Shown piece by piece: positions 39,963 through 55,991 of a DNA stretch of 64,000 nucleotides (the stretch's first letter is position 1; the number at the start of each line of letters is the position of its first letter). The DNA is from Chloroflexota bacterium (lineage in GTDB: Bacteria > Chloroflexota > Anaerolineae > Anaerolineales > JBFLVL01), in contig JBFLVL010000009.1 in assembly GCA_040758495.1 (NCBI GenBank), positions 27,516 through 91,515 on the forward strand, written 5' to 3'. The position numbers were made by a program, and so were the translations under genes. The notes below the pieces were generated by a model, which saw only the letters and a list, made by a program, of their open reading frames with translations, was not told the origin of the DNA and searched no databases.

Positions 39963-40634
39963 ATGAATATGGATGCAGAAGATATTGTGTTCTACGAAGA
40001 CCAGACTCTGATTGCGGTCAACAAACCCTCCCAGGTGCTCACCCTTCCGGATGGCTACGATCCACACCTGCCCTATCTACGCAGCCTCTTAGAACCCCTC
40101 TTTGGACCTCTATACATTGTCCACCGTCTGGATCGGGATACCAGTGGGGTTTTACTCCTCGCCCGGACACCAGATGCTCATCGCGCCTTAAACCAGCAAT
40201 TCCAGGAACATGCCGTAAACAAGGTATACCATGCGCTCACCCACAATAATCCTCCCTGGGAGAGCATCACGATAGACTACCCCCTTCGTCCCAACGGAGA
40301 CCGTCATCACCGTACGATAGTTGACCACCAGCATGGTAAAGAAGCGATCACCGAATTTCGAGTGCTCAAACGATTTGAAAGGGTCTGCCTCCTGGAAGCT
40401 CGACCACTCACAGGACGACGACACCAGATACGGGTCCACCTAGCAAGCATAAATCTCCCCATCCTCGCTGATCAGCTCTATGGTCAGGAGTCCTCTCAGG
40501 GTATCATCCAACGTCTGGCTCTCCACGCCTTTTCAATTCGCATCCTCCATCCCACCACAAATGAAACGACCTCGTTTGAAGCCCCCTATCCCCCAGACTT
40601 CGCTCACGCCTTGCGAAGCGCGGGTTCTCTCTAG
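39963..40634 (+). CDS. RluA-family pseudouridine synthase
   Basis: The catalytic motif is HRLDRDTSGVLLLA. ATG 39963 avoids the overlap with ipk that the track start at 39921 would create. Confidence 0.88.
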   Translation: MNMDAEDIVFYEDQTLIAVNKPSQVLTLPDGYDPHLPYLRSLLEPLFGPLYIVHRLDRDTSGVLLLARTPDAHRALNQQFQEHAVNKVYHALTHNNPPWESITIDYPLRPNGDRHHRTIVDHQHGKEAITEFRVLKRFERVCLLEARPLTGRRHQIRVHLASINLPILADQLYGQESSQGIIQRLALHAFSIRILHPTTNETTSFEAPYPPDFAHALRSAGSL

Positions 40635-40635
40635 G

Positions 40636-42717
40636 ATGCCTATGGTTGACCTGTTCACCTACATCACCAAAAAGCTGTGGCCAGGCCTGGAAACCTTACC
40701 CGATGAACGGCAGCAAATCGGGATCAGCGAAGTAATTACCTTCCTTTACACCACTCCTCTGGCAATTGCTGGCCTGATATGGCTGGCAAGTACGACCGAT
40801 TGGTCAAACCTAGGGAAAAATATTGCTTTCCTGCTGGTGCACGCCCTGTTCTTGATGTTCTTCAACAGGTTTAAGTATTTCGTCATTATCGAATTGCGCA
40901 CAGATCGTTATGGCAGCTCCGAGGGAACGTTGACCAACATCATATTATGGTCAACCACTTTGCTCATCGGACCCTCTGCGTTGTGGCTGGCTGTCGCCTG
41001 GACGACTGTCCTTTTCATCCGGAACTGGATAGGGGCAAAATCTGTTGCTGCGCGCTGGCCTCTATTACGCAACCTTACCACCGACCTGGCTACTAATTCA
41101 TTCGTGTTTCTCTTATCTCTTAGCCTCTATCAGGCCATCGGAGGAAGTTATCCACCGAAAACGTTAGAACCAATCCTGATCATACAACTCTTCGGAGTTA
41201 TGACTTCATTTTTTGTTTTTTCATTAGTCCTGTGGTTGGGTTACATGGCATTTGGGGTAGGGATTCAAAAGCGGTTTGCTCACTCCAATCCTATTCGTCC
41301 CCTCGTCACCTTCTTTGCCCTGGCACTCAGTCTGCCCCACCTGGTCTCACCTTTCGCTATTATTTCCTCCAGCTTATACGCTCAGAGCGGTATTTTCGCC
41401 TATCTATTCTTTTTGAGTGGTTTTTGTGTCATCGCCCTGGCTACTCATCAACTAAGTTGGGCAGCCGAGACCAGCCGGGTACAATCTCGAGCTTTAGAGA
41501 AATTAGAAAAGTTAGGAAGGAATATCATTAATTCTTTCCCCGACAGGGCTTCCCTACAGGAGATCTTGCAGGAAAACGTGGCCAACATGTTCCCCTCCGG
41601 ATTCCTGGCTATCTGGACAGTTTACGACGAACTGCTCCGCAAACAACCGGATTATTGGGAAGCCGAGATTGAAAAAATATTACCCTGGGCAATGCCCCTC
41701 GAGGAGGCGCGCTGCTTTACAGCCAACGAAACCCTCCCCTGGGAAGAGGAGGGAAAGAAGGATCATAATCCCATTATCCTGGCTCCCATTCAGGATTCTG
41801 AGGGGGAAACTTCCATCGGATTTATCTACCTGGAATTACGCTTGCTGGCCCAACCCTGGACACACAAAGCCCTCCAAAACCTGCTTCCGGCTGTTCAGGC
41901 ATTAGCCTCACTCATCACTTCCGCTGACCACCAAGCCCACACGTATTCACAAAACCTGGAATATCAACGCTTGACGCAGGAATTGAAACTGGCTGCCCGC
42001 ATCCAGTACAGCCTGCTCCCCTCCAGAGTGCCAACCATCCCTGGCTGGCAGCTCGCGGTCACCTTCGATCCGGTGGGTGAAACTTCCGGCGACTTCTTCG
42101 ACATCATACCGCTGTCTGAAGGGAGAATTGGCCTGGTAGTGGCAGATGTTGCCGATAAGGGTTTTGGCCCCGCTCTTTTCATGGCGATCAGCCGGACGCT
42201 GTTGCGTACCTATGCTTATGAATTCGAAACCCAACCCGAGATGATCATCCGGGCTACTAACGAGCGCATTCTAAGAGATAGCCGTGCCGGTCTCTTTGTC
42301 ACTGTCTTTTTCAGCATTTTAGACCAGGAAACCAGGACGCTGAGCTACGCCAACGCCGGTCACCATCCTCCCATCTTACACAGTGCTCACAACCAGGTAA
42401 AAACCCAGGTGCTTATGAACACTGGCATCCCCGTTGGCATTGATGAGAAAGCTACCTGGGGGTGTGAGAGCGTCAAGATGTTCCCTGGTGACCTCTTGGT
42501 TCTCTACACGGATGGACTAACCGATGCGCAAAATGCCCACGGTAAGTTCTACGGGCAAGAGAACCTGATATACTCGATTATTGAAAATCATGGTAAGCCT
42601 GCCGACGAAGTTCAAAAGAACATTCTGGATAGCGTGTACCAATTTACCAGCGAGGCTCCCCAGTTCGATGACATCACCCTGATGGTATTGTGCAGGAACT
42701 TTGCTGAAGAGGTGTGA
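40636..42717 (+). CDS. Membrane-bound PP2C/SpoIIE-family serine phosphatase with a multi-TM N-terminus and a GAF-like middle region
   Basis: The PP2C blocks are GDFFD, VADVADKGFGPALFM, NAGHHPP, LYTDGLTDA and FDDITLMV. About 8 TM segments precede them. ATG 40636 immediately follows the rluA-family stop, and the track's 52-aa N-terminal extension overlaps that gene. Confidence 0.85.
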   Translation: MPMVDLFTYITKKLWPGLETLPDERQQIGISEVITFLYTTPLAIAGLIWLASTTDWSNLGKNIAFLLVHALFLMFFNRFKYFVIIELRTDRYGSSEGTLTNIILWSTTLLIGPSALWLAVAWTTVLFIRNWIGAKSVAARWPLLRNLTTDLATNSFVFLLSLSLYQAIGGSYPPKTLEPILIIQLFGVMTSFFVFSLVLWLGYMAFGVGIQKRFAHSNPIRPLVTFFALALSLPHLVSPFAIISSSLYAQSGIFAYLFFLSGFCVIALATHQLSWAAETSRVQSRALEKLEKLGRNIINSFPDRASLQEILQENVANMFPSGFLAIWTVYDELLRKQPDYWEAEIEKILPWAMPLEEARCFTANETLPWEEEGKKDHNPIILAPIQDSEGETSIGFIYLELRLLAQPWTHKALQNLLPAVQALASLITSADHQAHTYSQNLEYQRLTQELKLAARIQYSLLPSRVPTIPGWQLAVTFDPVGETSGDFFDIIPLSEGRIGLVVADVADKGFGPALFMAISRTLLRTYAYEFETQPEMIIRATNERILRDSRAGLFVTVFFSILDQETRTLSYANAGHHPPILHSAHNQVKTQVLMNTGIPVGIDEKATWGCESVKMFPGDLLVLYTDGLTDAQNAHGKFYGQENLIYSIIENHGKPADEVQKNILDSVYQFTSEAPQFDDITLMVLCRNFAEEV

Positions 42718-42812: not shown

Positions 42813-43748
42813 ATGAAAATTGCAATAATGGGTACTGGGGGAGTAGGTGGTTATTACGGCGGCCTACTGGCCCTTAAAGGACATGATGTGACCTTCATCG
42901 CTCGCGGCGCGCACCTTGAAGCCATCCTCAAGTATGGTCTGCAGGTCAAAAGCATCCACGGGGACTTTACAATTTCTCCCTCCAAGGCCACAGAAGACCC
43001 GACCGAAATCGGAACGGTAGACCTGGTTTTGTTCTGTGTGAAAACCTACAGCACAGACCAAGCCGCGCAGGCCATCAGACCGATTGTTGGCTCAAAGACG
43101 ACAGTGATGAGCCTGCAGAATGGGATTGACGCCATTGAGCGGATCGGGGCAGTCATCGGGATGAAGCACATGGTTGGTGGTGCGACGTGGATCTCGTCAA
43201 CGGTCGAAGCGCCAGGGATAATCAAGCAAGTCTCACAATTTCGACGCATCGTAATAGGCGAGTTAGATGGCAGCCTAAGCCCGAGGGTGGAGACAATCGT
43301 GGAGGCCTTCAAACCAACCGGCATTACTATTGAAACCACAGACGATATCCAGAAAATTTTATGGACAAAGTTCGTTTTCATATCAGCTATAAGCGGTATC
43401 GGCTCCCTCGTCCGATTGGAGGTGGGTGACTACCGATTCGTCCCGGAGACGCGCACCCTGCTGGAAAATCTGATGCGCGAAGTAGTTTCCCTGGCGCGCG
43501 CTTCAGCAGTCAACCTTGACACAAACGTGGTTGAACAATCTATGGCGTTCATTGATAATGCCGCGCCTCACATCAAACCTTCCATGCAACGTGATATTGA
43601 ATCAGGTCGCCAATCTGAACTGGAATCCATGATTGGTCTGATCGGGCATAAGGGGCGTGCGTTAGGCATCCTAACCCCAACAGCCAACGTGATATATGCG
43701 TTGCTTTTGCCCTGCGATTTGAAAGCCCGTCAGGGAACCACCACATAG
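42813..43748 (+). CDS. panE: 2-dehydropantoate 2-reductase (ketopantoate reductase)
   Basis: The 311-aa ORF has an N-terminal Rossmann motif MKIAIMGTGGVGGYYGG, length and layout typical of ApbA/PanE, and a GGAGGAG SD. Confidence 0.75.
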   Translation: MKIAIMGTGGVGGYYGGLLALKGHDVTFIARGAHLEAILKYGLQVKSIHGDFTISPSKATEDPTEIGTVDLVLFCVKTYSTDQAAQAIRPIVGSKTTVMSLQNGIDAIERIGAVIGMKHMVGGATWISSTVEAPGIIKQVSQFRRIVIGELDGSLSPRVETIVEAFKPTGITIETTDDIQKILWTKFVFISAISGIGSLVRLEVGDYRFVPETRTLLENLMREVVSLARASAVNLDTNVVEQSMAFIDNAAPHIKPSMQRDIESGRQSELESMIGLIGHKGRALGILTPTANVIYALLLPCDLKARQGTTT

Positions 43749-44552
43749 TAGTGATAATAGTACGTATCGCATAGGAAGTGAAAATTCATCTATAATCCAC
43801 TTTAAATTTGATTTATAATAAGCAAGAATAATAGCAACGATCTCTCCAAAAAAGTGTTTCTATATACGACAAAGCATCCTGGGCCAAAAGCTAACAGTCA
43901 ATGTATGCTCTATATTCATGCTTTTGCCAAAAGACCATAGCGGATTGGCACATGGGGGTTACCAATCCGAGGGTTGTTGTACGTATTAACGTCAATGAGC
44001 GTTAATTGCTCTTGGCGTTTTTGTTTTATTGGTTTTGGAGCGGCACCTTTCAAGCGTAGCCTCAGCGTGGCGAGCATATACAGAAGCAGGCCAGACATCT
44101 AGCACGGCATTAAATTCTACCCTGGCACGTGCACTCATGTTCTTACGAAGGTAAGCCACACCGAGGTTGTAGTGCGCAGCAGCCTCATTACGCCTAAATA
44201 CCCCTGGTTATCCTGCTGCAAAACATCAGTGAACAAGGTAGTGGTTTCTTCTAATCACCTGAGCAGTGATACTCCTCCAAACAGGACTACGTAGTAGAAA
44301 CCTTCAAGTAAAAGAATTACAAGCAGACTCACAATACCACTAATGTTATCCAGAATTATTCATCAGTATGCCTGCCTTATCAAGATCAAGTGTATCAATG
44401 GAAGATTGGATGAATGAAAAGGAGGTGAGCATATCGGAGAACTACGTATTGAATACACCTTTTCATCGTGGCATAAGCCCGAGTTATGCGGGTGAATGCT
44501 AACCAAATACCATCATTTTTTTTGTACAATCTTTTTCTATAAGGAGAAAAAT

Positions 44553-46268
44553 ATGAATTCCCTTCTTGTTCTAATTTTGGCAGCCCTTGGTATCGGTATT
44601 GGATATGGCATCTATGCCAAGAACGTCGACAAAAAGATCGTCGAACCCAATCCAGATAAAGCAACGCCGGCAAAGATGTACATGGACGGGGTAGACTTCA
44701 CCCCAGCTACCCGTAATGTGTTGTTTGGTTACCAGTTCAAATCTGTGGCAGCGTTGGCGCCTCTCACAGGGCCTGTCATTGCCGTTCAATGGGGCTGGCT
44801 ACCCGCGCTGCTGTGGATCATCCTGGGCGTCTTCTTCATTGGTTGGGTGCAGGACTACGGTGCCATGATCATGGGCGTACGCCGCGAAGGAGAGACCATG
44901 GGAGCGTTAAGCTACAAGCTGATTTCTCCACGCGCACGCACCATCCTGATGATCTTCATCTACTTCTACCTGCTGCTGATCATGGGCGCTTTCGGCAACG
45001 CAGTCGGAAAGACCTTGATGGTCAAACCCACGGTGCCGTTCGGCATTATTGCCCTTGTGCTGATGGGCGTGCTGGCTGGGCAGATGACCTACCGCTGGAA
45101 GCAAGACATCATTCTTACATCCATCGTCACCGTCATCTTGACTTTCGTTGGCATCTGGCTCGGTACCACTGAGGCTGTCTCAAATTTCTTTGGCGCTCTC
45201 TATGGTCTTCCCGAATCACCCCAGTGGTTCCTGGGCAATACCCAGGCGGCTGTGCTGGGCACCATCCTGATGGTTATCTTCTGTTATCTCGGCGCGGTAT
45301 TGCCTATCTGGAGCTTCGCCCAGCCGGTTAACTATGTGTCCTTCTGGATCGTGACGTTGGGTATGATCAGCGCTGTGCTTGGTCTGTTGATCTGGCGTCC
45401 CGGCATGGGAGATTTCCCAATCTTCACCCAGTTCACCACCGCCAGCGGACCGCTATGGCCGATGCTCTTCGTTACCATCGCCTGTGGTGCCATCTCCGGC
45501 TGGCATAGCCTGGTTTCCACCTCAGGTACGGCGCGCCAGCTCGAAAAAGAGACCGATGCCCTGCCGGTTGGCGGCGGAGCCATGTTTATGGAAGCCGCTT
45601 TCGCTGTTGTCGCTTTCCTGACCGCCACAGTCGCCTTTGGCAGCTTCCAGGGATATATGGATGCCGGCGGCCCAGGCGCAGCGTTGGGGGTCTTTGCCAA
45701 AGGGCTTGCTGCTTTCATGAACAGGGTTGGCGTCCCTGAAACCTTCGGTGTGGCTTACGGCTCCGTTTTCCTGACCATCATGGCGATTACAATCATGCAA
45801 TTGGTGGTGCGCTTCATGCGAGTGGCCAGCGCTGAGTTGCTTGGCGATAAAATGCCAGTGATGAAAAATGTGCATGTGGGCACCATCATAGCATTGCTTC
45901 TGACCCTGCTGTTCGTCTGGATCATCCCCTGGTTGGCAATCTGGGGCGCCTTCGGCGCGGCTAACCAGTTGATGGCCGGGCTGGCCTTGCTGTTGATCGC
46001 CCTGTGGTTGAAGTCGGAGGGCAGGAAGAATGGCTGGGCGCTCTATCCGGCCATCTTCATGATCGTCACAGACATGGCCGCCCTGATCTTCCTGGCGTAT
46101 GTAAACTTCAAGAAGCTGGCTACTCCCGAGATCACCACACAGGCTTTCATCGCCTCCATACTCCTGGGGATCATCGCGGTGGTTCTGATCGTCGCAGCGG
46201 CCATTCTGATCATCGATGCCTGGAAGGCACTGCGCGCCCCAACAAAAGAGGTTGCCAGGGCAGCCTGA
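44553..46268 (+). CDS. cstA: Carbon starvation protein A-family transporter
   Basis: The ORF has more than 14 TM segments and carries ...TPAKMYMDGVDFTPATRNVLFGYQFKSVAALAPLTGPVIAVQWGWLPALLWI.... ATG 44553 is preceded by AAGGAG at 44541-44546. The track's 19-aa extension is rejected. Confidence 0.85.
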   Translation: MNSLLVLILAALGIGIGYGIYAKNVDKKIVEPNPDKATPAKMYMDGVDFTPATRNVLFGYQFKSVAALAPLTGPVIAVQWGWLPALLWIILGVFFIGWVQDYGAMIMGVRREGETMGALSYKLISPRARTILMIFIYFYLLLIMGAFGNAVGKTLMVKPTVPFGIIALVLMGVLAGQMTYRWKQDIILTSIVTVILTFVGIWLGTTEAVSNFFGALYGLPESPQWFLGNTQAAVLGTILMVIFCYLGAVLPIWSFAQPVNYVSFWIVTLGMISAVLGLLIWRPGMGDFPIFTQFTTASGPLWPMLFVTIACGAISGWHSLVSTSGTARQLEKETDALPVGGGAMFMEAAFAVVAFLTATVAFGSFQGYMDAGGPGAALGVFAKGLAAFMNRVGVPETFGVAYGSVFLTIMAITIMQLVVRFMRVASAELLGDKMPVMKNVHVGTIIALLLTLLFVWIIPWLAIWGAFGAANQLMAGLALLLIALWLKSEGRKNGWALYPAIFMIVTDMAALIFLAYVNFKKLATPEITTQAFIASILLGIIAVVLIVAAAILIIDAWKALRAPTKEVARAA

Positions 46269-46301: not shown

Positions 46302-46329
46302 AAGGGAGGGTAGTTGCCTACCCTCCCTT
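46302..46329 (+). terminator. Strong hairpin after cstA (12-bp perfect stem, 4-nt loop)
   Basis: The sequence AAGGGAGGGTAG-TTGC-CTACCCTCCCTT lies 34 nt after the cstA stop. The U-tract is poor (T then ATAAAAA), so termination efficiency is uncertain. Confidence 0.5.
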
Positions 46330-46377: not shown

Positions 46378-46422
46378 GAAAATGGTAAACGAAGGGGAGG
46401 GACCCCTTCGTTACCATTTTTA
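46378..46422. terminator. Bidirectional intrinsic terminator
   Basis: The sequence GAAAATGGTAAACGAAGGGG-AGGGA-CCCCTTCGTTACCATTTTT forms a stem of ~18 bp with one bulged A. It is flanked by an A-tract on the 5' side and a T-tract on the 3' side. Confidence 0.7.
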
Positions 46423-46464: not shown

Positions 46465-46839
46465 ATGCCCAAACCAATAAAACTGGAAATCCTTTCGCTG
46501 GTGCCCATGACGTACAAACAGTGACCGCACTGCGAAAAGTTATATGACCAATCGGGCATTGGGCAACAGGTACACAATCAAATACTGGCGGAATATCCTC
46601 AGGACCTTCTCGAAGATCATCATCGACTCTCCTCTCTGGTGGTAGAATTAAGTAGTCGCTTCAAAGATGACATTGTTATTTCTGTTATCGATCCCCAATC
46701 ATTGCCGGGAATCTTCAAATCGTTCCGTTACCGGGTACGAAAGTATCCCACTTTTATCATAGACGGACAGGAATTAGTTACCGGTTGGGATCGGGCAGCA
46801 TTGGATCGTGCGCTGGAATCTCGGCTTTCGTCTCCATAG
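46465..46839 (+). CDS. Thioredoxin/glutaredoxin-fold protein with an in-frame TGA (46522-46524) at the first position of a U/C-P-H-C motif; candidate selenoprotein
   Basis: The track calls only a GTG-started 66-aa ORF (46639..46839). The same frame is open back to ATG 46465 apart from one TGA. The translation is MPKPIKLEILSLVPMTYKQ-[TGA]-PHCEKLYDQ...KYPTFIIDGQELVTGWDRAALDRALESRL. This gives a beta1 strand, the redox motif, and a cis-Pro/beta3-beta4/alpha3 signature. There is no clear SD at 46465. Confidence 0.5.
46545..46565 (+). other. Candidate bacterial SECIS hairpin
   Basis: The hairpin UG(A)CCAAU-CGGGC-AUUGG(G)CA has 7 bp plus one mismatch and a G-rich 5-nt apical loop that starts 28 nt after the UGA. 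Confidence 0.35.
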
Positions 46840-46890
46840 AGGATTGAGCTGAGAGTACAATCAGTTCAGCTATGGAAAGCTAAGGAGTTC

Positions 46891-47178
46891 ATGTTCTCTC
46901 AAGCGAAAACCTGCGTAAAGAACGCGCTACAAACCATCCGTGAAGTCTTATACGGCATGACCATATACGATTGGGCGCGCGAACTCGAAAGGGCCCGCAA
47001 CGAACGTGATCGTCTCTTCACAATGATCGCATACGGAGAACTGCTCGGTATTCCTATCCTGCCTCCCTATTACATCTTACGCCTGATACCCTATATTGTG
47101 CCAGACTTCCCAAGCTGGCAGCGAAGTATGTTGCGCGAACGAGATCTCACCGATCTCTTCGATCAAGAAATTGGATAA
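46891..47178 (+). CDS. Small protein A (95 aa), unassigned family; paralog of the next gene
   Basis: An AAGGAG SD lies at 46882-46887. The C-terminal half is ...GELLGIPILPPYYILRLIPYIVPDFPSWQRSMLRERDLTDLF. Confidence 0.75.
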   Translation: MFSQAKTCVKNALQTIREVLYGMTIYDWARELERARNERDRLFTMIAYGELLGIPILPPYYILRLIPYIVPDFPSWQRSMLRERDLTDLFDQEIG

Positions 47179-47197
47179 ATATAAGGAGAACTTCACC

Positions 47198-47476
47198 ATG
47201 ACAGAAGAAGAACGACAAAATATCCTCAAGAGAGCAGGAAAATCGGCCATCGAATTCATCTATGGCATGGCCGGTCACGATATGACTCGCTTCGCCCTGA
47301 AAACCAGGGGGAGTATGGAGCATTTGTTTATCCTGATCACCATGGGTGACTTGCTCGGTGTGCCCATCCTGCCACCTTATTATTCGCTGCGGTTGCTGCC
47401 ATATGTCGTTCCACAAATTTCGACCTGGAAACGGCGCATGTTGCGCGAGCGCGACCTGACCGATGCCCTGGCTTAG
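47198..47476 (+). CDS. Small protein B (92 aa), paralog of small protein A
   Basis: An AAGGAG SD lies at 47183-47188. The C-terminal half is ...GDLLGVPILPPYYSLRLLPYVVPQISTWKRRMLRERDLTDAL. The track's extension to 47096 overlaps gene A and is rejected. Confidence 0.75.
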   Translation: MTEEERQNILKRAGKSAIEFIYGMAGHDMTRFALKTRGSMEHLFILITMGDLLGVPILPPYYSLRLLPYVVPQISTWKRRMLRERDLTDALA

Positions 47477-47490
47477 AAGGGAGCTGATGC

Positions 47491-48492
47491 ATGTCTCTGG
47501 CACGCATTTTTGACGAACATCCAGAACGACGCTACATTATGTTTGGCGGCAAGGGCGGCCTGGGAAAGACCACCTTTTCGGCTGCCACGGCCTATTATCT
47601 GGCCAAAAAAGGCCATAAGGTGTTAGTTTTTTCCGTAGATCCCCAGGCTTCCCTCTCCGACATCTTCGAGCGCGACATCTTTGGACAGGGGGCAGTGGAG
47701 ATTATGCCCAACCTCTACGCCCAGGAGATCGACGCCGACCGTCACATCAAGGAATACCAGGACGAAATCCGCCAGAAGATCTTCGATATGTACGGCCTGG
47801 AGGAAATCCCTGAAGAGATCGAAAGTTATATCCAGGCTGCCGCGGCCGAACCGGCCATGGAAGAGAGCGCCATCTTCGACCAGGTGGTTGATATCGTGGT
47901 CAGCGCAGAATATGACTACTATATCTACGACCTGGTACCTCTCGGTCACGCGCTTTATTACCTGAGCATGGCCAGCGTGTACGACGAGTGGATCGACAAG
48001 ATCACCAAGCTTCGCCAGGAGATGGAGGAATACAGCAAGGTGGCCTCACTTATCAAGCGCGAAAAAGAATTCGAAGAGGATATGATCCTCCAAGAATTGC
48101 TCGATATCAAATACCGCATCAACACCTCCTCCGGTATCCTGACAGATAAAGATAAGACGGCCTTCTTTTTTGTGATCATCCCGGAAGAGATGGCCTTGCT
48201 GGACACCCAAAAAGCAGCCGGTTTGTTTGCCAAATACCAAGTGCCCCTAAGCGGTTACGTGGTAAACCGGGTCATTCCACCCGAATTAGAGCAGCAAAAT
48301 ATCCCCGATTATTTACGTCATCGCTTGGATATGCAAGGAGGCTATCTAAAACGAATTGACGACCTATTCAAAGAGAATGTGTTGGCCCGAATCCCTGAGT
48401 TCGAGCGCGACATCACTGGGCTGCCAATGATTCGCAAAGTTGCCGAGGCGATGTTTGGCACGATACCAGCAGACGAAGGAGCATTGTCATGA
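47491..48492 (+). CDS. ArsA/Get3-family P-loop ATPase, paralog 1
   Basis: The 333-aa ORF has the deviant Walker A FGGKGGLGKTT, the switch-I-like SVDPQASLSD, and the switch-II position YDLVPLGHA, which keeps GH but has lost TAPT. An AAGGGAG SD is present. Confidence 0.85.
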   Translation: MSLARIFDEHPERRYIMFGGKGGLGKTTFSAATAYYLAKKGHKVLVFSVDPQASLSDIFERDIFGQGAVEIMPNLYAQEIDADRHIKEYQDEIRQKIFDMYGLEEIPEEIESYIQAAAAEPAMEESAIFDQVVDIVVSAEYDYYIYDLVPLGHALYYLSMASVYDEWIDKITKLRQEMEEYSKVASLIKREKEFEEDMILQELLDIKYRINTSSGILTDKDKTAFFFVIIPEEMALLDTQKAAGLFAKYQVPLSGYVVNRVIPPELEQQNIPDYLRHRLDMQGGYLKRIDDLFKENVLARIPEFERDITGLPMIRKVAEAMFGTIPADEGALS

Positions 48493-49466
48493 TTGAGAAG
48501 TCAATGCAAGATTATTTAAAAGAGAATCCCCGGCTGAAATACACCTTTTTCGGTGGTAAGGGTGGTGTTGGAAAGACGGTTCTGGCAGGTGCGATGGCCT
48601 TGGGATATGCCAGGCAGGGTAAGAGCACCATCCTGGCCTCCACAAACCCTGTTCACAGTCTCACCAGCCTGCTCGATCAAGATGTCTTCGGAAAACCAAC
48701 GCTTGTCTCTGGTGTACCCAATCTGACAGCTTATGAGATCGACACGCGTGATACCATCGAACGGTCGAAGCTGGAAATCCGCGAGAAGATCAGCTGGTTC
48801 CTCAAATTCGCCGACATCAAAACCAAGGCTGATGAATTCGTCGAATCGGCTACAATGAATCCTGCATTCGAAGAGTCGGCCATGTTCGAAAACATGATAG
48901 ACCTGATGTTCAAAGACGAGTATGAAGTCTATGTCTTCGATACGGCTCCGACCGCCAATGCACGTCGCTTGCTAGGCATGTCATCGGTCTATTCGATGTG
49001 GGTCAACAAGATGGTCAAAAGCCGCGAAGAGGCAAGGTCGTTGCGCGAACTGCTATCGTATAGCAAAAAGAAAGAGGAAAAGGATCCTCTTATGGAATAT
49101 CTCCTCAACCTCCAAGATCGGATGGGACGCGCTAAAAACCTGCTTACCAATCCCGCGTTGACTGCCTTCTTCTTCGTCACCCTTCCCGAAGCGCTGCCGA
49201 TTGCCGTGATTACCCGTTTCATCAATTGGTTCGAGGAATTCGGCATTCCAGTTGGGGGGGTAGTGGTTAATATGCTTATTGACAAAGACAGCGTTGCTGA
49301 GGACGCGCCCGAGTTTGTGAGAAACCGGGTCAAGATGCAGGCAAACTATATGAACGAGATATGGAAAATATTCAATGGAAGCGTTCGCTCGCTTGTGCCA
49401 TTATACGAAACTGAGGTGCGCGGCGTCGAGATGCTAGAGAGAACCGCCGACTCCCTGTTCGCTTGA
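48489..49466 (+). CDS. ArsA/Get3-family P-loop ATPase, paralog 2
   Basis: The 325-aa ORF has a 4-nt overlap with paralog 1. It has FGGKGGVGKTV, the switch-I position STNPVHSLTS (D replaced by N), and switch II FDTAPTANA, which keeps DTAPT but has lost GH. Confidence 0.85.
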   Translation: MIEKSMQDYLKENPRLKYTFFGGKGGVGKTVLAGAMALGYARQGKSTILASTNPVHSLTSLLDQDVFGKPTLVSGVPNLTAYEIDTRDTIERSKLEIREKISWFLKFADIKTKADEFVESATMNPAFEESAMFENMIDLMFKDEYEVYVFDTAPTANARRLLGMSSVYSMWVNKMVKSREEARSLRELLSYSKKKEEKDPLMEYLLNLQDRMGRAKNLLTNPALTAFFFVTLPEALPIAVITRFINWFEEFGIPVGGVVVNMLIDKDSVAEDAPEFVRNRVKMQANYMNEIWKIFNGSVRSLVPLYETEVRGVEMLERTADSLFA

Positions 49467-49490
49467 GGAGGAGCGGGTGATCTATGAGAA

Positions 49491-49524
49491 ATGCCCTGGA
49501 CCTCGACCAGGCCAGGGCGTTTTC
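49491..49524 (+). terminator. Possible attenuator hairpin between ArsA paralog 2 and the TPR gene
   Basis: The hairpin GCCCTGG-(12 nt)-CCAGGGC is followed by GTTTTC. The stem is only 7 bp and the T-tract is short. Confidence 0.3.
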
Positions 49525-49544
49525 ATTGACAAAAAGGTTTACTT

Positions 49545-50162
49545 ATGAACCCATACTTGATGATCCTGCTAATCGGGTTGTTCTATATTGTCCTTTTCGG
49601 AGGATTATCCTTGCTTCGCCGCGAGGGCCTGTCGCTCCAATTTGCCTTCGAGGTGTTGGGCGTTACCGCACTGGTCGAGGCCTTCGCCATCCTGACAGGA
49701 ATACCGATCAACCCGCTCATTTTCATAATAATCATCTACCTGATCTCGATGCGGGTTCGTCTGATTGTCGATCTGGCTAATGTGCTTTCAAACCGCGGGC
49801 GTCAGCGAGATGCAATAAACCTGTTGCAATTTGCCTTGCGCCTGTACCCCGACCACAGCGCCCGCCTGGTTGTCTACGTCAATATGGGCATCGTTCAATT
49901 ACGCAGGCAGAATCCCGAAAGCGCCAGAGACCTCTTCGATCAAGCTCTAGAAGAATCCCAACAGGGGGGCCTGGGGATCAAGTACGAAGCGGCCTGTCGC
50001 TACAACCTGGCTCTGGCACTGCAACACCTGGGCAAAGAGGCAGAAGCTGTGCGCCAATTCAACGAAACGATCGTCATTTTCCCCAATTCGATCTACGGCA
50101 GAGCAGCCGAGCGCGCCCTGGAAAAGCACCGCCATCGGCACCGCGGGGAGAGTCAGGAATGA
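49545..50162 (+). CDS. Membrane protein with 3 N-terminal TM helices and a cytoplasmic TPR domain
   Basis: The 205-aa ORF has a hydrophobic N-terminus (MILLIGLFYIVLFGG..., ...LIFIIIIYLISM). TPR-like repeats follow (...AINLLQFALRLYPDH..., ...ARDLFDQALEE..., ...ACRYNLALALQHLGKEAEAVRQFNETIVIFP). Confidence 0.75.
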   Translation: MNPYLMILLIGLFYIVLFGGLSLLRREGLSLQFAFEVLGVTALVEAFAILTGIPINPLIFIIIIYLISMRVRLIVDLANVLSNRGRQRDAINLLQFALRLYPDHSARLVVYVNMGIVQLRRQNPESARDLFDQALEESQQGGLGIKYEAACRYNLALALQHLGKEAEAVRQFNETIVIFPNSIYGRAAERALEKHRHRHRGESQE

Positions 50163-50228: not shown

Positions 50229-50900
50229 CTACGCTTTGACTAAACTTATACTTTGCAACCAGGCCTGTAAGGATGAAAAGAATTCTTCCGAAGGACTACT
50301 CATCAAAGGGGAGATGAATACTCGCACAGCCAGATGAGGCGCCTTACGCCCCAAGGAAATCCTTTGCACCGTCGCCCCTTCTCGCGCCATAAATGCCTCT
50401 AGTTTCTCCAGGCTTTCAGGATTGGCCTTGCCTCGATAAGCAATCTGAAATTGCTCCAGGCCAGATACAAGCTGGAAGGGACGCTTAGGATCATGCGCTA
50501 ATAATTTCGCGAAAGATCGATCGCGTTTCCGGGCTACCTCCAATTCCAGAGGCGGTGAATTTCGCAACCAGGCTTTTAAAATCATCTCGTCACGCTTGTT
50601 TCTCAACAGATTGAACAACCACAATGGCAACAACTCGCGCGACTCCAACAGAAAAACCACCTCAATCTTTTGAAAAGGGGCTGTTGCTCTTTTTACTGCA
50701 ATCTGAGCGCCAGATCCCGATGAGCCAATCCAGCTCACTTCTGATAGCTTGCCAATTTTTTCTAACCCATCACGTATCCACCGGTAAATCAGGATGCCCC
50801 GTTTGCGGTTCAGGTAGGCAGCCACCACATACCAGGCTAGCAGGAAAATACACAATCCGATGACAATCCACTGTCCTAAATCCCATTCTCCGAAATTCAT
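50229..50900 (-). CDS. Hypothetical protein with a single N-terminal TM helix
   Basis: The 223-aa ORF is convergent with the TPR gene. I recognised no motif. Confidence 0.6.
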   Translation of the reverse strand: MNFGEWDLGQWIVIGLCIFLLAWYVVAAYLNRKRGILIYRWIRDGLEKIGKLSEVSWIGSSGSGAQIAVKRATAPFQKIEVVFLLESRELLPLWLFNLLRNKRDEMILKAWLRNSPPLELEVARKRDRSFAKLLAHDPKRPFQLVSGLEQFQIAYRGKANPESLEKLEAFMAREGATVQRISLGRKAPHLAVRVFISPLMSSPSEEFFSSLQAWLQSISLVKA

Positions 50901-51033: not shown

Positions 51034-51180
51034 AACGATAAAGTCGCCGTAGTAGTGACTGCCGCATCGAAAGTCGTGGGAAAGGCTGCGGCACTGGCCT
51101 TCGCTCGTGAGGGAGCGGCAGTGGCGATGAGCACCCGCAGCGAAACCCTCAACCTCGCCGCTATGAATCGCGAAACCCCT
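51034..51180 (+). pseudogene. Relic of a short-chain dehydrogenase/reductase N-terminus (no start codon, degenerate Gly motif)
   Basis: The frame opens directly after a TAA. It reads NDKVAVVVTAASKVVGKAAALAFAREGAAVAMSTRSETL, compared with the SDR pattern K.A.VTGAS.GIG.A.A..FA.EGA.V. Both glycines of TGxxxGxG are lost. The frame runs into the 3' end of the opposite-strand gene. Confidence 0.3.
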
Positions 51181-51598
51181 AATCAAATCTCTTCACCATG
51201 GTTAATTCATTTCCCTTATCTGTAAACTCATAAGAAACCTCATCCATTATCTGGCGCATTAAAAACAAACCTACACCCCTTGGGGAAACTTCATGGAGGG
51301 ATTTCTTTATTTCCGGTTCTGGGACAAGTGTGGGATCAAACCTGTTCCCCTGATCTCTCAACCGAACCGTCAACCCCTCCTCGGTTATTTGACAGGTACA
51401 CTCAATGTCCCCCAACCCCTCTCCACCATAGGCATGGTCAATAATGTTCGTAAAGGCTTCATCTACCGCCAGGATAACCCTATAAATTACCTTGTCAACA
51501 AATCCTGCTTGTTTAGCCAACTCAGCCACAAAATCACGAACCTGGGAGAGATTCTCATATCGGGCAGGATATATCATGGTGGGCATTATCAAAGTCAA
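51179..51598 (-). CDS. Anti-sigma regulatory factor Ser/Thr kinase (RsbW/SpoIIAB-like, HATPase_c_2)
   Basis: The 139-aa ORF carries ...ILAVDEAFTNIIDHAYGG... and ...RGVGLFLMRQIMDEVSY.... Confidence 0.8.
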   Translation of the reverse strand: MTLIMPTMIYPARYENLSQVRDFVAELAKQAGFVDKVIYRVILAVDEAFTNIIDHAYGGEGLGDIECTCQITEEGLTVRLRDQGNRFDPTLVPEPEIKKSLHEVSPRGVGLFLMRQIMDEVSYEFTDKGNELTMVKRFD

Positions 51599-51604
51599 AA
51601 CCGG

Positions 51605-51940
51605 TTAGAAACTGCCAACTGCGTCTGTTACACTATCGTACATTTTGAAATACTTTTGTAGCCCCACTAATCTCAATGAGTCACGGATTTCATCGCTGAT
51701 ACCCACCAACACCAATTCCCCCCGGTTGTAGCGTTTACACAGCTTCTGGGTTTCAATTAAAACCCACCATCCCCTACTGGATATGAAGTCAACATCGCTT
51801 AAATCAAAAACCAGTCGGTAGCGACCTTCCTCAGCTTTCTGTTGAAATGCCTGCTCTAAATAGGGTGAGTTAAAACTATCAATCCTCCCTGAGGTCCTGA
51901 TTACTGAGCAACGCTTATAATCAGTGGTAACAACATCCAT
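51605..51940 (-). CDS. STAS-domain anti-sigma-factor antagonist
   Basis: The ORF carries ...RTSGRIDSFNSPYLEQ...LVFDLSDVDFISSRGWWVL...LVLVGISDEIRDSLRLVGL.... I prefer ATG 51940 because of a GGAG SD 9 nt upstream. ATG 51955 is possible. The track start at 52072 is rejected. Confidence 0.78.
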   Translation of the reverse strand: MDVVTTDYKRCSVIRTSGRIDSFNSPYLEQAFQQKAEEGRYRLVFDLSDVDFISSRGWWVLIETQKLCKRYNRGELVLVGISDEIRDSLRLVGLQKYFKMYDSVTDAVGSF

Positions 51941-52090
51941 GGTGTTACGCTCCATTTTTTTCAAGATGTTAGCTAATTTTGGGAACACTTTTCTCAGCTT
52001 TTGATACTGAAAGTATAACACAGCATATGTTCCTTGGTGCGGAGCAGGATAGTGGTTGGGTAACAGAACCACCTTACTTTATAATATACG

Positions 52091-53851: not shown

Positions 53852-53972
53852 CCTGCAAGTTGTAACCATCTTGTTATCATATCGTACAGGCACCTGCCAT
53901 AACCACCCTGGCAACATGTCAAATCGTCTCACGAAATTAAATATCATAGAAAACCCGAAGTGCAATTCTAAT

Positions 53973-55991
53973 ATGCCCGTGAAAAGGCCGTCGCATTATT
54001 TAATAATAACTGGCTTGATACTCGCCCTGTTCTTATCGGCGTGTTCATCTGCGGGAACAGCTGCCCTCCCGACCGAAGACCACATTGAGACAGTAACTAC
54101 CAGCCTTGTAGAAAATGAGGAAGAAGAGCGAATCATCGGAATCATCACTGCGGTGATCGGACTTTTACTCATGGCCTCCCTGGTTGGCATCGTCACCAAC
54201 CAGTTACGTTTGCCGTACACGGTAGGATTGGTGCTCATTGGGCTTGCCCTGTCACTGCGGGGTCAGGAAAGAATATACATTCCACCTGAAATATTTCTGG
54301 GCTTACTTGTACCACCCCTGATATTCGAGGCTGCCTTCCATATCAAAATAAGAGACCTGCAAAGGGACCTAATGCCCATACTTACCCTGGCTATCCCCGG
54401 TGTGTTGATCACCACATTACTTGTAGGCGGTGTCGTAGCCTGGGGCACAGGCTTCCCACTGGCAGTAGCTCTCGTCTTCGGAGCCTTGGTGGCAGCCACC
54501 GACCCAGTAGCTGTAGTGGCACTCTTCCGAACATTGGGAGTTCCTAAACGACTACAGGTACTTCTGGAGGGCGAGAGCCTCTTCAATGATGGTACAGCCA
54601 TTGTTGTCTTCAACTTGATGACGGTTATAGCGGTGAGCGGGGTTTTCGAACCTCTGAGGAGTATGATGGATTTCGTCATTGTTTCCGGGGGAGGTTTAGC
54701 TGTCGGTTTCGTGTTGGGTATATTCATCTCCCAGGCCATCAGCCTCTTCCACAATCCCATGATCGAAACCACATTGACCACCGTCCTTGCGTTCGGAGCT
54801 TATATCGTCGCCGAGCAACTGCATGTCAGCGGCGTATTAGCTGTTGTAGCTGCCGGCCTGGTCAGCGGGAACATTGGCCCACGCGGCATGTCACCATCTA
54901 CACGTATTTTAGTATTCAACTTTTGGGAATACGCTGCTTTTTTAGCCAACTCGATTGTCTTTTTGTTGATTGGTTTTCAAATCAACTTGCAGGTGTTGTT
55001 GGTCAACTGGCAGGTCACAACCTGGGCGATACTGGCAGTGTTAGTCGCTCGCGCCGTAAGTGTATACGGGCTCTCAGGGGTTGGTCCAGGGGTGCCAAAG
55101 CGCTATAAACACGTTCTATATTGGGGAGGATTACGTGGTGCTATTTCGCTGGCACTGGCTCTCAGCATCCCCACCTCTTTGGGTGCCCCCAGAGACGAAA
55201 TTCAAACCATGGCCTTTGGTGTGGTGCTTTTTACCCTCCTGGTGCAAGGTCTGACGATGAAACCTTTGATCACCAAAATGGGCCTCATTCAACGCACCAG
55301 AGCCCAGGAGGAGTACCAACGCCGTCACGCCCGTGCCATAATGGCCCGGGCTGCGTATGACCGCCTGGAGTACATGTATAAGGAGGGGTTGCTCTCCAAC
55401 CACGTCTGGGGGTTGTTATCCGAACCCATCCGGTTACACGCTGAAGGCTTGGCAAGCGCGGTGACTGAAGTCCTGCAAGCTGATCCAGGTTTAGAAGCTG
55501 AAGAAGTGGACTCGGCGTTGCGAGATCTGCTGCAAACCCAACGCAGTTCACTGACTACCATGCTCAGGGACGGGTTGATCTCCGAAGACACATTCTCACA
55601 GCTCGTCATGGAGGTAGACACAGCGTTAACCGAACAACGTTCAAACTTGATCGAACTCCTGGTGTACAGAACCAGCCGAGCTATCCATGGGCTGATGGCC
55701 ATTGTTTTACAGGAAGCAGATGTAGAGAACGTGGTCGCGGCACTGAGCCGCCAGGGTCTACCCACAACCAGACTATCCAGCATCGGTGGCTTCCTGCACC
55801 AGAAAAACACCACTCTGTTAGTGGGAGTACCGGAAGGACAAGAGGATGCCATCCTTAAAACCGTCACCAAAACCAGCCGCCAGCGGGTTGAATCGTTCCG
55901 CGTCTCCGCGGATGGCATCGACACTTCTCCTCCTGTCACTGTGGGTTCAACGATCTTCGTCTTTGACGTCGAGCGATATGAGGAACTCTGA
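53973..55991 (+). CDS. CPA1 (NhaP-type) Na+(K+)/H+ antiporter with a long cytoplasmic tail ending in a PII-like cyclic-di-AMP-receptor (DarA/PstA-like) domain
   Basis: The core has ~12 TM segments with ...FGALVAATDPVAV... and ...LEGESLFNDGTAIV.... The C-terminal ~105 aa are LMAIVLQEADVENVVAALSRQGLPTTRLSSIGGFLHQKNTTLLVGVPEG...GSTIFVFDVERYEEL. The start was placed at ATG 53973 (MPVKRPSHYLIITGLILALFLSAC). Confidence 0.85.
   Translation: MPVKRPSHYLIITGLILALFLSACSSAGTAALPTEDHIETVTTSLVENEEEERIIGIITAVIGLLLMASLVGIVTNQLRLPYTVGLVLIGLALSLRGQERIYIPPEIFLGLLVPPLIFEAAFHIKIRDLQRDLMPILTLAIPGVLITTLLVGGVVAWGTGFPLAVALVFGALVAATDPVAVVALFRTLGVPKRLQVLLEGESLFNDGTAIVVFNLMTVIAVSGVFEPLRSMMDFVIVSGGGLAVGFVLGIFISQAISLFHNPMIETTLTTVLAFGAYIVAEQLHVSGVLAVVAAGLVSGNIGPRGMSPSTRILVFNFWEYAAFLANSIVFLLIGFQINLQVLLVNWQVTTWAILAVLVARAVSVYGLSGVGPGVPKRYKHVLYWGGLRGAISLALALSIPTSLGAPRDEIQTMAFGVVLFTLLVQGLTMKPLITKMGLIQRTRAQEEYQRRHARAIMARAAYDRLEYMYKEGLLSNHVWGLLSEPIRLHAEGLASAVTEVLQADPGLEAEEVDSALRDLLQTQRSSLTTMLRDGLISEDTFSQLVMEVDTALTEQRSNLIELLVYRTSRAIHGLMAIVLQEADVENVVAALSRQGLPTTRLSSIGGFLHQKNTTLLVGVPEGQEDAILKTVTKTSRQRVESFRVSADGIDTSPPVTVGSTIFVFDVERYEEL

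Follow-up and report, generated by a model that had tools for sequence, protein, structure and literature searches.

Gene organization of the locus

We analyzed a 64,000-nucleotide stretch of DNA (the window) from an Anaerolineales bacterium of the phylum Chloroflexota (assembly GCA_040758495.1, contig JBFLVL010000009.1), and in it a gene cluster that combines a CstA-family permease with small CstX-type proteins and a pair of ArsA/Get3-type ATPases. Six co-directional genes on the forward strand form the body of this cluster, and open reading frames (ORFs) were found at every coordinate that an initial annotation, made from the sequence alone, had given for them. The first gene (Trx-like, positions 46465–46839 of the window) encodes a divergent protein of 124 amino acids with a probable thioredoxin fold and a U-P-H-C motif, in which U is selenocysteine (Sec). 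Two CstX-type small proteins of Pfam family DUF7990 follow (sA, 46891–47178, 95 amino acids; sB, 47198–47476, 92 amino acids), and then two paralogous ATPases of the single-domain ArsA/Get3 type (AT1, 47491–48492, 333 amino acids; AT2, 48489–49466, 325 amino acids). The sixth gene (49545–50162) encodes a membrane protein of 205 amino acids with about three N-terminal transmembrane (TM) segments and a tetratricopeptide repeat (TPR) domain. As the annotation had it, the genes are closely spaced, with gaps of 51, 19, 14, and 78 nucleotides and a 4-nucleotide overlap between AT1 and AT2, and four are preceded by Shine-Dalgarno sequences (AAGGAG before sA and sB, AGGGAG before AT1, and GAAGGAG before AT2); no such sequence was obvious upstream of the Trx-like or TPR gene.

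The block had been bounded by a terminator upstream and a convergent gene downstream, limits that proved too narrow, since a CstA permease gene and the convergent gene itself also belong to the conserved set. The permease gene (44553–46268, forward strand) was missed because the block edge was set at the terminator, and it is the most informative neighbor of the six genes. Its product matches PF02554 (CstA, carbon starvation protein A) with an E-value of 3.5e-114, which predicts a member of a pyruvate and peptide transporter family. The probable start codon is the ATG at 44553, within an ORF that opens at 44496. The convergent gene (50229–50900, reverse strand) encodes a CstY-like protein of 223 amino acids with one N-terminal TM segment. 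Upstream of cstA is a gene for an ApbA/PanE-type 2-oxoacid (ketopantoate) reductase (42813–43748, forward strand; PF02558 and PF08546), which is possibly associated with the cluster.

Relatives of this locus were sought in one genome per species, yielding 264 confirmed loci that encode a relative of the small proteins. The best 80 of these 264 (L001–L080) are nearly all from metagenome-assembled genomes (MAGs) of Anaerolineae, Thermoflexia, Caldilineae, or other Chloroflexota. In tblastn searches with the proteins of the window, the order CstA, Trx-like, sA, sB, AT1, AT2 is kept in essentially all sufficiently flanked loci. Among 64 related loci, 61 have a cstA that ends no more than 2 kb ahead of sA, and sB, AT1, and AT2 are found downstream of sA in 55 of the 56 loci having enough flank. 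The gene neighborhood is thus conserved far beyond chance. Three loci (L012, L016, and L031) come from MAGs labeled Zixiibacteriota, Actinomycetota, and Egibacteraceae despite typical Chloroflexota synteny and AT1 proteins that are 84–93% identical, and one protein (P0382) carries a Bacteroidota label; these labels are probably binning or labeling errors rather than signs of horizontal transfer.

A sister lineage of Anaerolineales (L081–L083) has a related arrangement, namely ApbA, CstA, a 215-amino acid protein, two DUF7990 proteins, two ArsA-type ATPases, and a third DUF7990 protein encoded after both ATPases (L081, 10692–10901; L082, 9695–9955; L083, 10653–10901). Both the Trx-like and the TPR genes are missing from this lineage. 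The initial annotation had also noted a lack of arsenic genes, and indeed the neighbors from 37 to 56 kb of the window include none of the ars families (ArsB, Acr3, ArsR, and ArsC). Models of defense systems (PADLOC) gave nothing but a P-loop-level match.

Relationship to CstA–CstX–ArsA clusters

The gene set matches a genomic pattern noted by Castillo and Saier (2010, Int J Microbiol 2010:187373; PMC2963123), and so the initial claim of an undescribed system does not hold. In that in silico study of SEED gene contexts and tree comparisons, 26 bacterial and archaeal clusters were found to pair CstA with a single-domain ArsA homolog of ~330 amino acids. A protein of ~90 amino acids scored as having a single transmembrane segment (TMS), CstX, occurred in 24 of the 26, and a single-TMS protein of ~210 amino acids, CstY, occurred in five archaea. 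Adjacent pairs of paralogous ATPases were reported in Pyrobaculum arsenaticum and Symbiobacterium thermophilum, and pairs of CstX paralogs in Pyrobaculum and Thermococcus kodakarensis. Congruent trees were taken as evidence of coevolution, and the ATPase was proposed to supply CstA with energy, CstX serving to couple the two. The Bacillaceae belong to cluster 17 of that study, operons of B. halodurans and Oceanobacillus are listed in it, and no Chloroflexi appear among its CstA-linked clusters. In our literature searches, CstX in this sense turned up in the 2010 paper alone, and queries for PF25952, DUF7990, cory-CC-star, or Get3 together with "carbon starvation protein" returned no papers.

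It is well supported that the locus is a CstA–CstX–(CstY)–ArsA type cluster in a Chloroflexota (Anaerolineae) form. The two share CstA, proteins of ~90 amino acids, ATPases of ~330 amino acids, the lack of ars genes, and components that coevolve; paired ATPases and paired CstX also occur in some of the genomes studied in 2010. The locus differs from those clusters in the fixed, complementary degeneration of its ATPase motifs and in its additional genes for a thioredoxin-fold and a TPR protein. Points new in this form are the asymmetric ATPase pair, the duplicated CstX and its suggested wiring, the thioredoxin-fold accessory with alternating Sec and Cys, and the TPR protein.

The connection of sA and sB to CstX is made through a homologous protein in the CstX position of a Bacillaceae operon. 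A tblastn search of annotated plasmids with AT1 gave one informative record, a megaplasmid of Cytobacillus spongiae (NZ_CP089998.1), on which carbon starvation protein A, a hypothetical protein of 95 amino acids, a cory-CC-star protein, and an ArsA family ATPase are encoded in a row. This operon fits the placement of Bacillaceae in cluster 17 (PMC2963123). Its cory-CC-star protein is 85 amino acids in length and ends in IRCC, and it aligns with the DUF7990 profile with an hhalign probability of 96.5% (E-value 1e-9). The aligned core of the two families is LF.L..Y.D.LG.P....YY.L.L.PY.V....W. Downstream of these Cytobacillus genes (L086, 8488–12231) are genes for a CsoR-like metal-sensitive regulator, TusA, a DsrE/F-like protein, a second TusA, an MBL-fold hydrolase, and a TauE/SafE exporter. 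This sulfur-trafficking set echoes the thiol and selenol theme around CstA and may be coincidental.

The CstX-type small proteins

The two small proteins are paralogs, as initially reported (48% identity, E-value 2e-30). They had been placed in no known family; both are members of Pfam DUF7990 (PF25952) and remote homologs of NCBIfam cory-CC-star (NF041419). The exact sequence of sA is present at NCBI (P0001) as a hypothetical protein from a Chloroflexota MAG, and precomputed PF25952.1 assignments exist for P0001, all listed homologs, and ~1,200 relatives. A search of 1.84 billion representative sequences with the DUF7990 profile gave 437 clusters, with several types of C-terminal tail and some fusions. 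Against NF041419, sA scores 42.6 bits (E-value 4.6e-11) and sB 33.5 bits, outside the equivalog defined by the cutoff of 80, and other diverse DUF7990 members also match this model below its cutoff, with E-values down to 4.5e-12. Unlike cory-CC-star, and unlike the Cytobacillus protein in the CstX position, sA and sB have no C-terminal Cys-Cys, as their tails end in DQEIG and TDALA, respectively.

Other searches with the small proteins were negative. No match to sB was found in plasmids by tblastn, and a search started from P0213, the DUF7990 member that diverges most, returned metagenomic or Anaerolineae sequences only, with no cultured genomes from outside the Chloroflexota. A relationship to E. 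coli YbdD (DUF466), considered on the basis of a "GM..YD" stretch and the CstA context, was rejected (hhalign probability 1%), and neither sA nor sB matches PF04328 or NF033934.

The most conserved component of the locus is sB, with 77–95% identity. Both small proteins have a hydrophobic stretch ~22 residues from the C-terminus, which contains invariant G-D, P-P-Y-Y, and L-R-L motifs (PPYY.LRL.P). The highest hydropathy values over 19-residue windows are 1.41 for sA and 1.59 for sB, under the usual TM threshold of 1.6. AlphaFold2 prediction of sB from an alignment of 54 sequences (pLDDT 60.5, pTM 0.24) yielded three helices without confident packing, and prediction of a natural DUF7990 tandem (P0121; pLDDT 59) likewise gave no confident tertiary structure. 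Predicted helices lacking a stable monomeric fold are as would be expected for an interface subunit. Given their extreme conservation, their sub-threshold hydrophobicity, and a pattern of coevolution that places CstX as a linker (see below), the reading that sA and sB are fixed adaptors rather than cargo is favored, though not settled.

Several proteins appear to be fusions with DUF7990. In three, a Trx-like protein is joined to DUF7990 (P0134, 215 amino acids; P0147, 224 amino acids; P0142, 184 amino acids), in P0199 the C-terminal TM region of CstA is joined to DUF7990, and P0121 consists of two DUF7990 units in tandem. If real, these could provide Rosetta-stone support for physical association; otherwise they could be gene-calling or assembly artifacts on short contigs. 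The C-terminal tails are variable. The first DUF7990 copy of the sister lineage (L081, 8001–8300) ends in a His-rich stretch (DEHDYHLHGL) that could bind metal, and lineage-specific cysteines occur in the sA tails of L055, L058, L061, L064, L069, L071, L073–L077, and others (TDLCDQEIT, RDICELFDQEIG, or WKRCILRERD). Such a tail cysteine is present in 48% of loci with a Trx-like gene versus 29% of those without one, which is not a significant difference at these numbers.

The ATPase pair

Both ATPases match PF02374 (E-values 3e-72 for AT1 and 7e-64 for AT2) and score well above the cutoff of 135 bits for TIGR00345 (TRC40/GET3/ArsA), at 237.6 and 209.2 bits, respectively. They are paralogs with 32% sequence identity (E-value 1e-59). 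Their closest structurally characterized relatives are the methanogen Get3 proteins 3UG6 (E-value 1e-60, 37% identity) and 3ZQ6 (E-value 2e-52, 33% identity), far ahead of E. coli ArsA, and they are similarly distant from the CstA-linked ATPase of Cytobacillus (31% identity). The deviant Walker A motif that had been read in both, GGKGG[LV]GKT, is present, and the P-loop is invariant in 63–67 orthologs.

The switch regions of the two paralogs differ in a complementary manner. Along with its intact P-loop, AT1 has S-V-D-P-Q-A-S in switch I and D-L-V-P-L-G-H in switch II. In AT2, the P-loop is also intact, and the corresponding sequences are S-T-N-P-V-H-S and D-T-A-P-T-A-N. These patterns are invariant in 67 orthologs of AT1 and 63 of AT2, and the sister lineage has the same ones. 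The single ATPase of Cytobacillus has the P-loop GGKGGVGKS, in which the lysine is kept and serine takes the place of the final threonine, with the canonical STDPAHN and DTAPTGHT in its switch regions. The switch I aspartate of Get3 is catalytic, and its D57N substitution produces a protein that binds ATP without hydrolyzing it. With asparagine (N53) in place of this aspartate (D50 in AT1), AT2 is probably a hydrolysis-deficient partner. Because the catalytic aspartate replaced in AT2 is kept in AT1, the pair looks like an obligate asymmetric heterodimer with one active site, which would have evolved through subfunctionalization. The initial proposal of a heterodimeric Get3-like ATPase is in this respect strengthened by invariant complementary motif changes in more than 60 orthologs.

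The ligand-binding features of ArsA and Get3 are altered in these proteins. The zinc-binding CxxC of Get3 (CDFC in MjGet3) aligns with PDYL in AT1 and PEFV in AT2, and cysteine is absent altogether from AT1 and AT2 and from most orthologs of AT1, AT2, and sB, which excludes an ArsA-type metalloid site. The Met-rich lid of MjGet3 (MSGFMKMMKKLLPF) aligns with charged segments in AT1 (MEEYSKVASLIKRE) and AT2 (ARSLRELLSYSKKK). Over the one 14-residue segment compared, mean hydropathy is −0.68 in AT1 and −1.05 in AT2 versus +0.45 in MjGet3, and the numbers of methionines are 1 and 0 versus 4. A charged segment at this position makes a classical tail-anchor groove somewhat less likely in AT1 and AT2.

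Coevolution of the components

Coevolution was evaluated by partial Mantel tests over 44 loci, with each pair of proteins controlled for the other three. The strongest partial correlation was between AT1 and AT2 (r 0.48), followed by CstA and sB (r 0.36), sA and AT2 (r 0.34), and sB and AT1 (r 0.26), all with p 0.0003. No correlation was evident between CstA and AT1 (r −0.02, p 0.67) or between sB and AT2 (r −0.01, p 0.55). This selective pattern suggests a chain in which CstA is connected to sB, sB to the AT1·AT2 pair, and the latter to sA. CstX would then be a linker, as supposed in the 2010 study. It also agrees with the initial claim of two cognate small partners, in that sA coevolves with AT2 and sB with AT1. 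The mean pairwise p-distance was 0.16 for sB, 0.21 for AT1, and 0.22 for AT2, compared with 0.34 for CstA.

The thioredoxin-like protein

The reading frame of the Trx-like gene, MPKPIKLEILSLVPMTYKQ*PHCE, is interrupted by an in-frame TGA at 46522–46524, and without read-through of this codon only a 66-amino acid ORF from a GTG at 46639 would be available. The TGA replaces the first cysteine of a CxxC motif in the window and in two related loci (L016 and L071), and this cysteine is invariant in the other ~55 orthologs. In the 17 codons upstream of the TGA, synonymous and nonsynonymous differences occur at a ratio of ~1:1, as they do downstream. By this alternation of Sec and Cys, it is well supported that the Trx-like protein is a selenoprotein in these three genomes, in line with the redox-active (seleno)cysteine accessory envisaged initially.

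A candidate bacterial selenocysteine insertion sequence (SECIS) hairpin begins 24 nucleotides after the UGA (46546–46564, forward strand; GACCAAT-CGGGC-ATTGGGC). Its stem has one mismatch in the window and forms seven perfect base pairs in L016 and L071 (GACCAAT-CGGGC-ATTGGTC); the energies of the 60-nucleotide fold are −6.3 kcal/mol in the window, approximately −13.5 kcal/mol in L016, and approximately −14.3 kcal/mol in L071. The hairpin coincides with conserved codons, and one Cys ortholog has it in part, so that it is no more than compatible with a SECIS element. No tRNA-Sec gene was found within the 64-kb window.

Among 31 aligned orthologs, C20-x-x-C23 (C-x-x-C-E) is invariant, and Y94-P95 forms part of a Y-P-T-F motif, as is typical for the cis-proline loop of thioredoxin folds. 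When the ortholog profile was compared with all PDB sequences (E-value ≤1), the top matches were thioredoxins, with weak E-values of 8e-4 to 3e-3, and no ArsD was returned; matches to Pfam Thioredoxin and Thioredoxin_3 fall below cutoff, and ArsD was not matched in Pfam or NCBIfam. The analogy to the metallochaperone ArsD that had been drawn for this protein is therefore not borne out at the sequence level. The CxxC (residues 20–23) lies ~25 residues N-terminal to the aligned position of the canonical motif. A thioredoxin fold is probable, as judged from these profile and motif matches.

As a Trx-like gene was recognized in 26 of 35 loci with complete flanks, it is considered an accessory rather than a core component. 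The possibility that the C/UxxC protein substitutes in trans for the Cys-Cys of cory-CC-star is not supported, since sA carries no additional cysteine at loci that lack the Trx-like gene (0.95 vs. 1.07 per protein). There was likewise no support for the idea that the 95-amino acid protein encoded between cstA and cory-CC-star in Cytobacillus is a Trx-like protein in shortened form (hhalign probability 1.5%).

The cstA spacer, membrane-side proteins, and flanking genes

The upstream terminator of the initial annotation is confirmed by a strong hairpin and T-run at 46388–46412 (10-pair stem), inside a longer inverted repeat at 46378–46422. A second hairpin, perfect, GC-rich, and 9 base pairs in length, is located at 46304–46329 (GGGAGGGTA-gttgcc-TACCCTCCC), ~35 nucleotides past the cstA stop codon. 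The 197-nucleotide spacer between cstA and the Trx-like gene thus contains two stem-loops, and is a possible site of regulated read-through. Among orthologous loci, the gap from cstA to the next gene is mostly 60–200 nucleotides, and a strong hairpin with a T-run follows cstA in just 18 of 67, from which the terminator appears not to be conserved; the simple scan used is a weak criterion that also fired in 13 of 63 coding controls. As in the window, a gene of the ApbA/PanE family lies directly upstream of cstA in the sister lineage (L081, 3976–4902; L083, 3594–4535). With a reductase gene next to cstA in both lineages, the permease may carry a 2-oxo acid, for example pyruvate. In E. coli, a hydroxycarboxylate dehydrogenase gene (hcxA) adjoins cstA-ybdD.

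The TPR gene was retained by 31 of the 35 loci whose flanks are complete. It usually follows AT2, and in ~12 loci it is found instead upstream of cstA on the other strand. Its absence from L081, L083, and Cytobacillus makes the TPR membrane protein a lineage-specific accessory, and the receptor role assigned to it in the initial annotation is unproven. The 223-amino acid protein has no Pfam or NCBIfam match. Its single TM segment spans residues 7–32, and its homologs, as identified by tblastn, remain in the neighborhood at varying positions. It is related (E-value 2e-23) to the 215-amino acid protein whose gene separates cstA from DUF7990 in the sister lineage. In size and topology it matches the CstY of PMC2963123, of which it is a candidate homolog.

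Genes for partner-switching signaling occur on both flanks. A SpoIIE-type PP2C phosphatase of 745 amino acids is encoded at 40480–42717 (forward strand), and an RsbW-like anti-sigma kinase (HATPase_c_2) and a STAS-domain antagonist at 51179–51598 and 51605–52072 (both reverse strand). Further downstream, a gene at 53871–55991 (forward strand) encodes a Na+/H+ exchanger (PF00999) whose C-terminus bears a cyclic-di-AMP receptor domain (PF06153), suggesting control of cation/proton exchange by c-di-AMP.

Discussion

The secondary carrier ArsB becomes an ATP-driven pump through the action of ArsA, and the ArsAB system resembles the present one in that an ATPase of the same superfamily is here proposed to dock on a secondary carrier, with a small thiol accessory, which in the case of ArsAB is ArsD. 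ArsA differs in being a fused two-domain protein of ~580 amino acids with metalloid-binding cysteines, whereas AT1 and AT2 are separate and free of cysteine; the ArsA model TIGR04291 gives AT1 and AT2 98 bits against a cutoff of 650, and there is no ars operon here. Archaeal Get3 proteins (3UG6 and 3ZQ6) are alike in being the best structural relatives and in having the deviant Walker A motif, a single-domain dimer architecture, and membership in TIGR00345. However, Get3 is a homodimer with a zinc CxxC and a Met-rich lid, set in the context of GET-pathway receptors, whereas AT1 and AT2 would form a heterodimer in the context of a permease.

Mycobacterial BagA and BagB (Rv3679 and Rv3680) are similarly encoded by two adjacent, diverged Get3-like ATPase genes and are thought to function as a heterodimer. 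They are not orthologs of AT1 and AT2, which score 49.8 and 43.0 bits against NF053622 (cutoff 400) and 40.0 and 30.3 bits against NF053621 (cutoff 521). Proteins of the BagAB type are also longer (415–425 amino acids for the Mycobacterium entries ahead of Cluster 11 in Table 1 of PMC2963123), and for Clusters 8–13 that study offers neither a hint of function nor a connection to CstA. Pyruvate uptake in E. coli depends on CstA and, along with it, on the small protein YbdD (PMC5847655). The CstA–YbdD and BtsT–YjiX systems share with the present one a gene for a small protein beside a CstA-family permease, with a vicinal Cys-Cys or Cys-Sec in their case, but they have no ATPase, and DUF466 is not detectably homologous to DUF7990.

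We propose a model in which a CstA permease carries a CstX-tethered, asymmetric heterodimer of the Get3/ArsA type whose ATP turnover drives or gates transport, a reading to which we give about an even chance of being correct. Gene content, conservation, family memberships, the asymmetry of the ATPase motifs, the alternation of Sec and Cys, and the pattern of coevolution are direct results, whereas the physical complex, the direction of coupling, what is transported, and the part played by the redox protein are inferred. The core would consist of a secondary permease of the CstA family and a cytoplasmic ATPase module, the latter an AT1·AT2 heterodimer with a competent site in AT1 and a degenerate site in AT2. 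In the complex, sB would bridge CstA to AT1, and sA would bind AT2. CstX would pass on ATP binding and hydrolysis in AT1·AT2 to the permease, whose uptake of a substrate of the pyruvate or peptide class would thereby be driven or gated. The 223-amino acid single-pass protein and the TPR protein would serve as membrane-side accessories, and the cytoplasmic C/U-x-x-C thioredoxin-fold protein would add a thiol or selenol step. The proposed coupling draws on gene context, coevolution, and the analogy with ArsA and ArsB. A more specific version, in which the Get3-derived ATPase is permanently docked through the two DUF7990/CstX adaptors and makes CstA an ATP-driven or ATP-gated importer under redox control by the selenol/thiol protein, is rather unlikely.

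Several points weigh against this model. To our knowledge, the members of the CstA family studied so far are proton-coupled carriers that operate without an ATPase. The best solved relatives of AT1 and AT2 are archaeal Get3 proteins, which are chaperones of tail-anchored proteins and not pump subunits. A strong terminator parts cstA from the module in the window, and 3 of 64 loci have no adjacent cstA. Some of the adjacency seen across a single class could stem from common descent, and partial Mantel tests are liberal under phylogenetic autocorrelation. The proposed link between the ATPase and transport goes back to PMC2963123, where it is itself based on context.

The alternative closest to the initial annotation is a self-contained, Get3-like targeting machine, with sA and sB as tail-anchor-like clients and the TPR protein as receptor; the adjacency of CstA would be incidental, or the clients would end up as subunits of CstA. 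The ancestry of the ATPases (archaeal Get3 as closest solved homologs, TIGR00345 above cutoff), the hydrophobic C-proximal stretch of the small proteins, the single TMS scored for CstX (PMC2963123), and the sB monomer model, unstructured except for helices, can all be read in this way. Yet the stretch falls below the TM threshold, includes an invariant Pro-Pro, Asp, and Arg, and is nearly fixed in sequence, whereas tail anchors drift. The segment aligned with the Get3 lid is charged in both ATPases, which also lack the zinc CxxC, and the sister lineage and Bacillaceae keep CstX and the ATPase in the absence of the TPR gene. Such a machine would also leave unexplained the near-obligate CstA neighborhood and the coevolution of CstA and sB, and we consider it unlikely.

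Another explanation is that the ATPase pair and CstX form a dedicated chaperone for the folding, insertion, or oligomer assembly of CstA and take no part in its transport cycle. This would account for the same linkage to CstA and for the chaperone ancestry of the ATPase family, and the terminator between cstA and the module would permit separate expression. Most CstA-family genes elsewhere manage without such a factor (in E. coli, cstA-ybdD alone), and the stoichiometric-looking co-duplication of CstX and the ATPase, along with the very high conservation of sB, suggests a stable complex instead, making a role confined to biogenesis or quality control improbable.

Least probable is metal(loid), selenium, or sulfur trafficking of the ArsA/ArsD type, in which the C/U-x-x-C protein would pass a thiophilic ligand to the ATPase and CstX for transport by CstA: vicinal thiols or selenols do recur beside CstA-type permeases (YbdD, YjiX, and cory-CC-star end in RCC, a Campylobacter/Helicobacter DUF466 selenoprotein ends in KCU, and E. 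coli YbdD also matches the NCBIfam KCU-star model), and there are the His-rich tail of one sister-lineage DUF7990 copy and the possible Trx–DUF7990 fusions, but AT1, AT2, and sB are Cys-free in most orthologs and so offer no ArsA-type ligand site, the Trx-like profile has no ArsD match, sA gains no compensating cysteine where the Trx-like gene is missing, and no metal or arsenic genes lie near the locus.

Prokaryotic single-domain homologs of ArsA and Get3 are common and have mostly undefined roles, and the proposal that some energize CstA dates from 2010. The present cluster is therefore not categorically new but is an elaborated form of a pattern already noted. It ties two uncharacterized families, Pfam DUF7990 and NCBIfam cory-CC-star, to the CstA–ATPase system, and adds a thioredoxin-fold U-x-x-C family with a clear alternation of Sec and Cys. 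Found in at least 264 Chloroflexota species, this locus type yields sharp predictions as to which subunit hydrolyzes ATP, which microprotein contacts the permease, and that the redox accessory is removable, and its simpler relatives in Bacillaceae are genetically tractable. If the more specific, permanently docked version of the model is true, these clusters would represent, besides ArsAB, another widespread class of "hybrid" transporter that draws its energy from an ArsA/Get3-type ATPase, and many prokaryotic Get3 homologs would gain a role unrelated to tail-anchored proteins.

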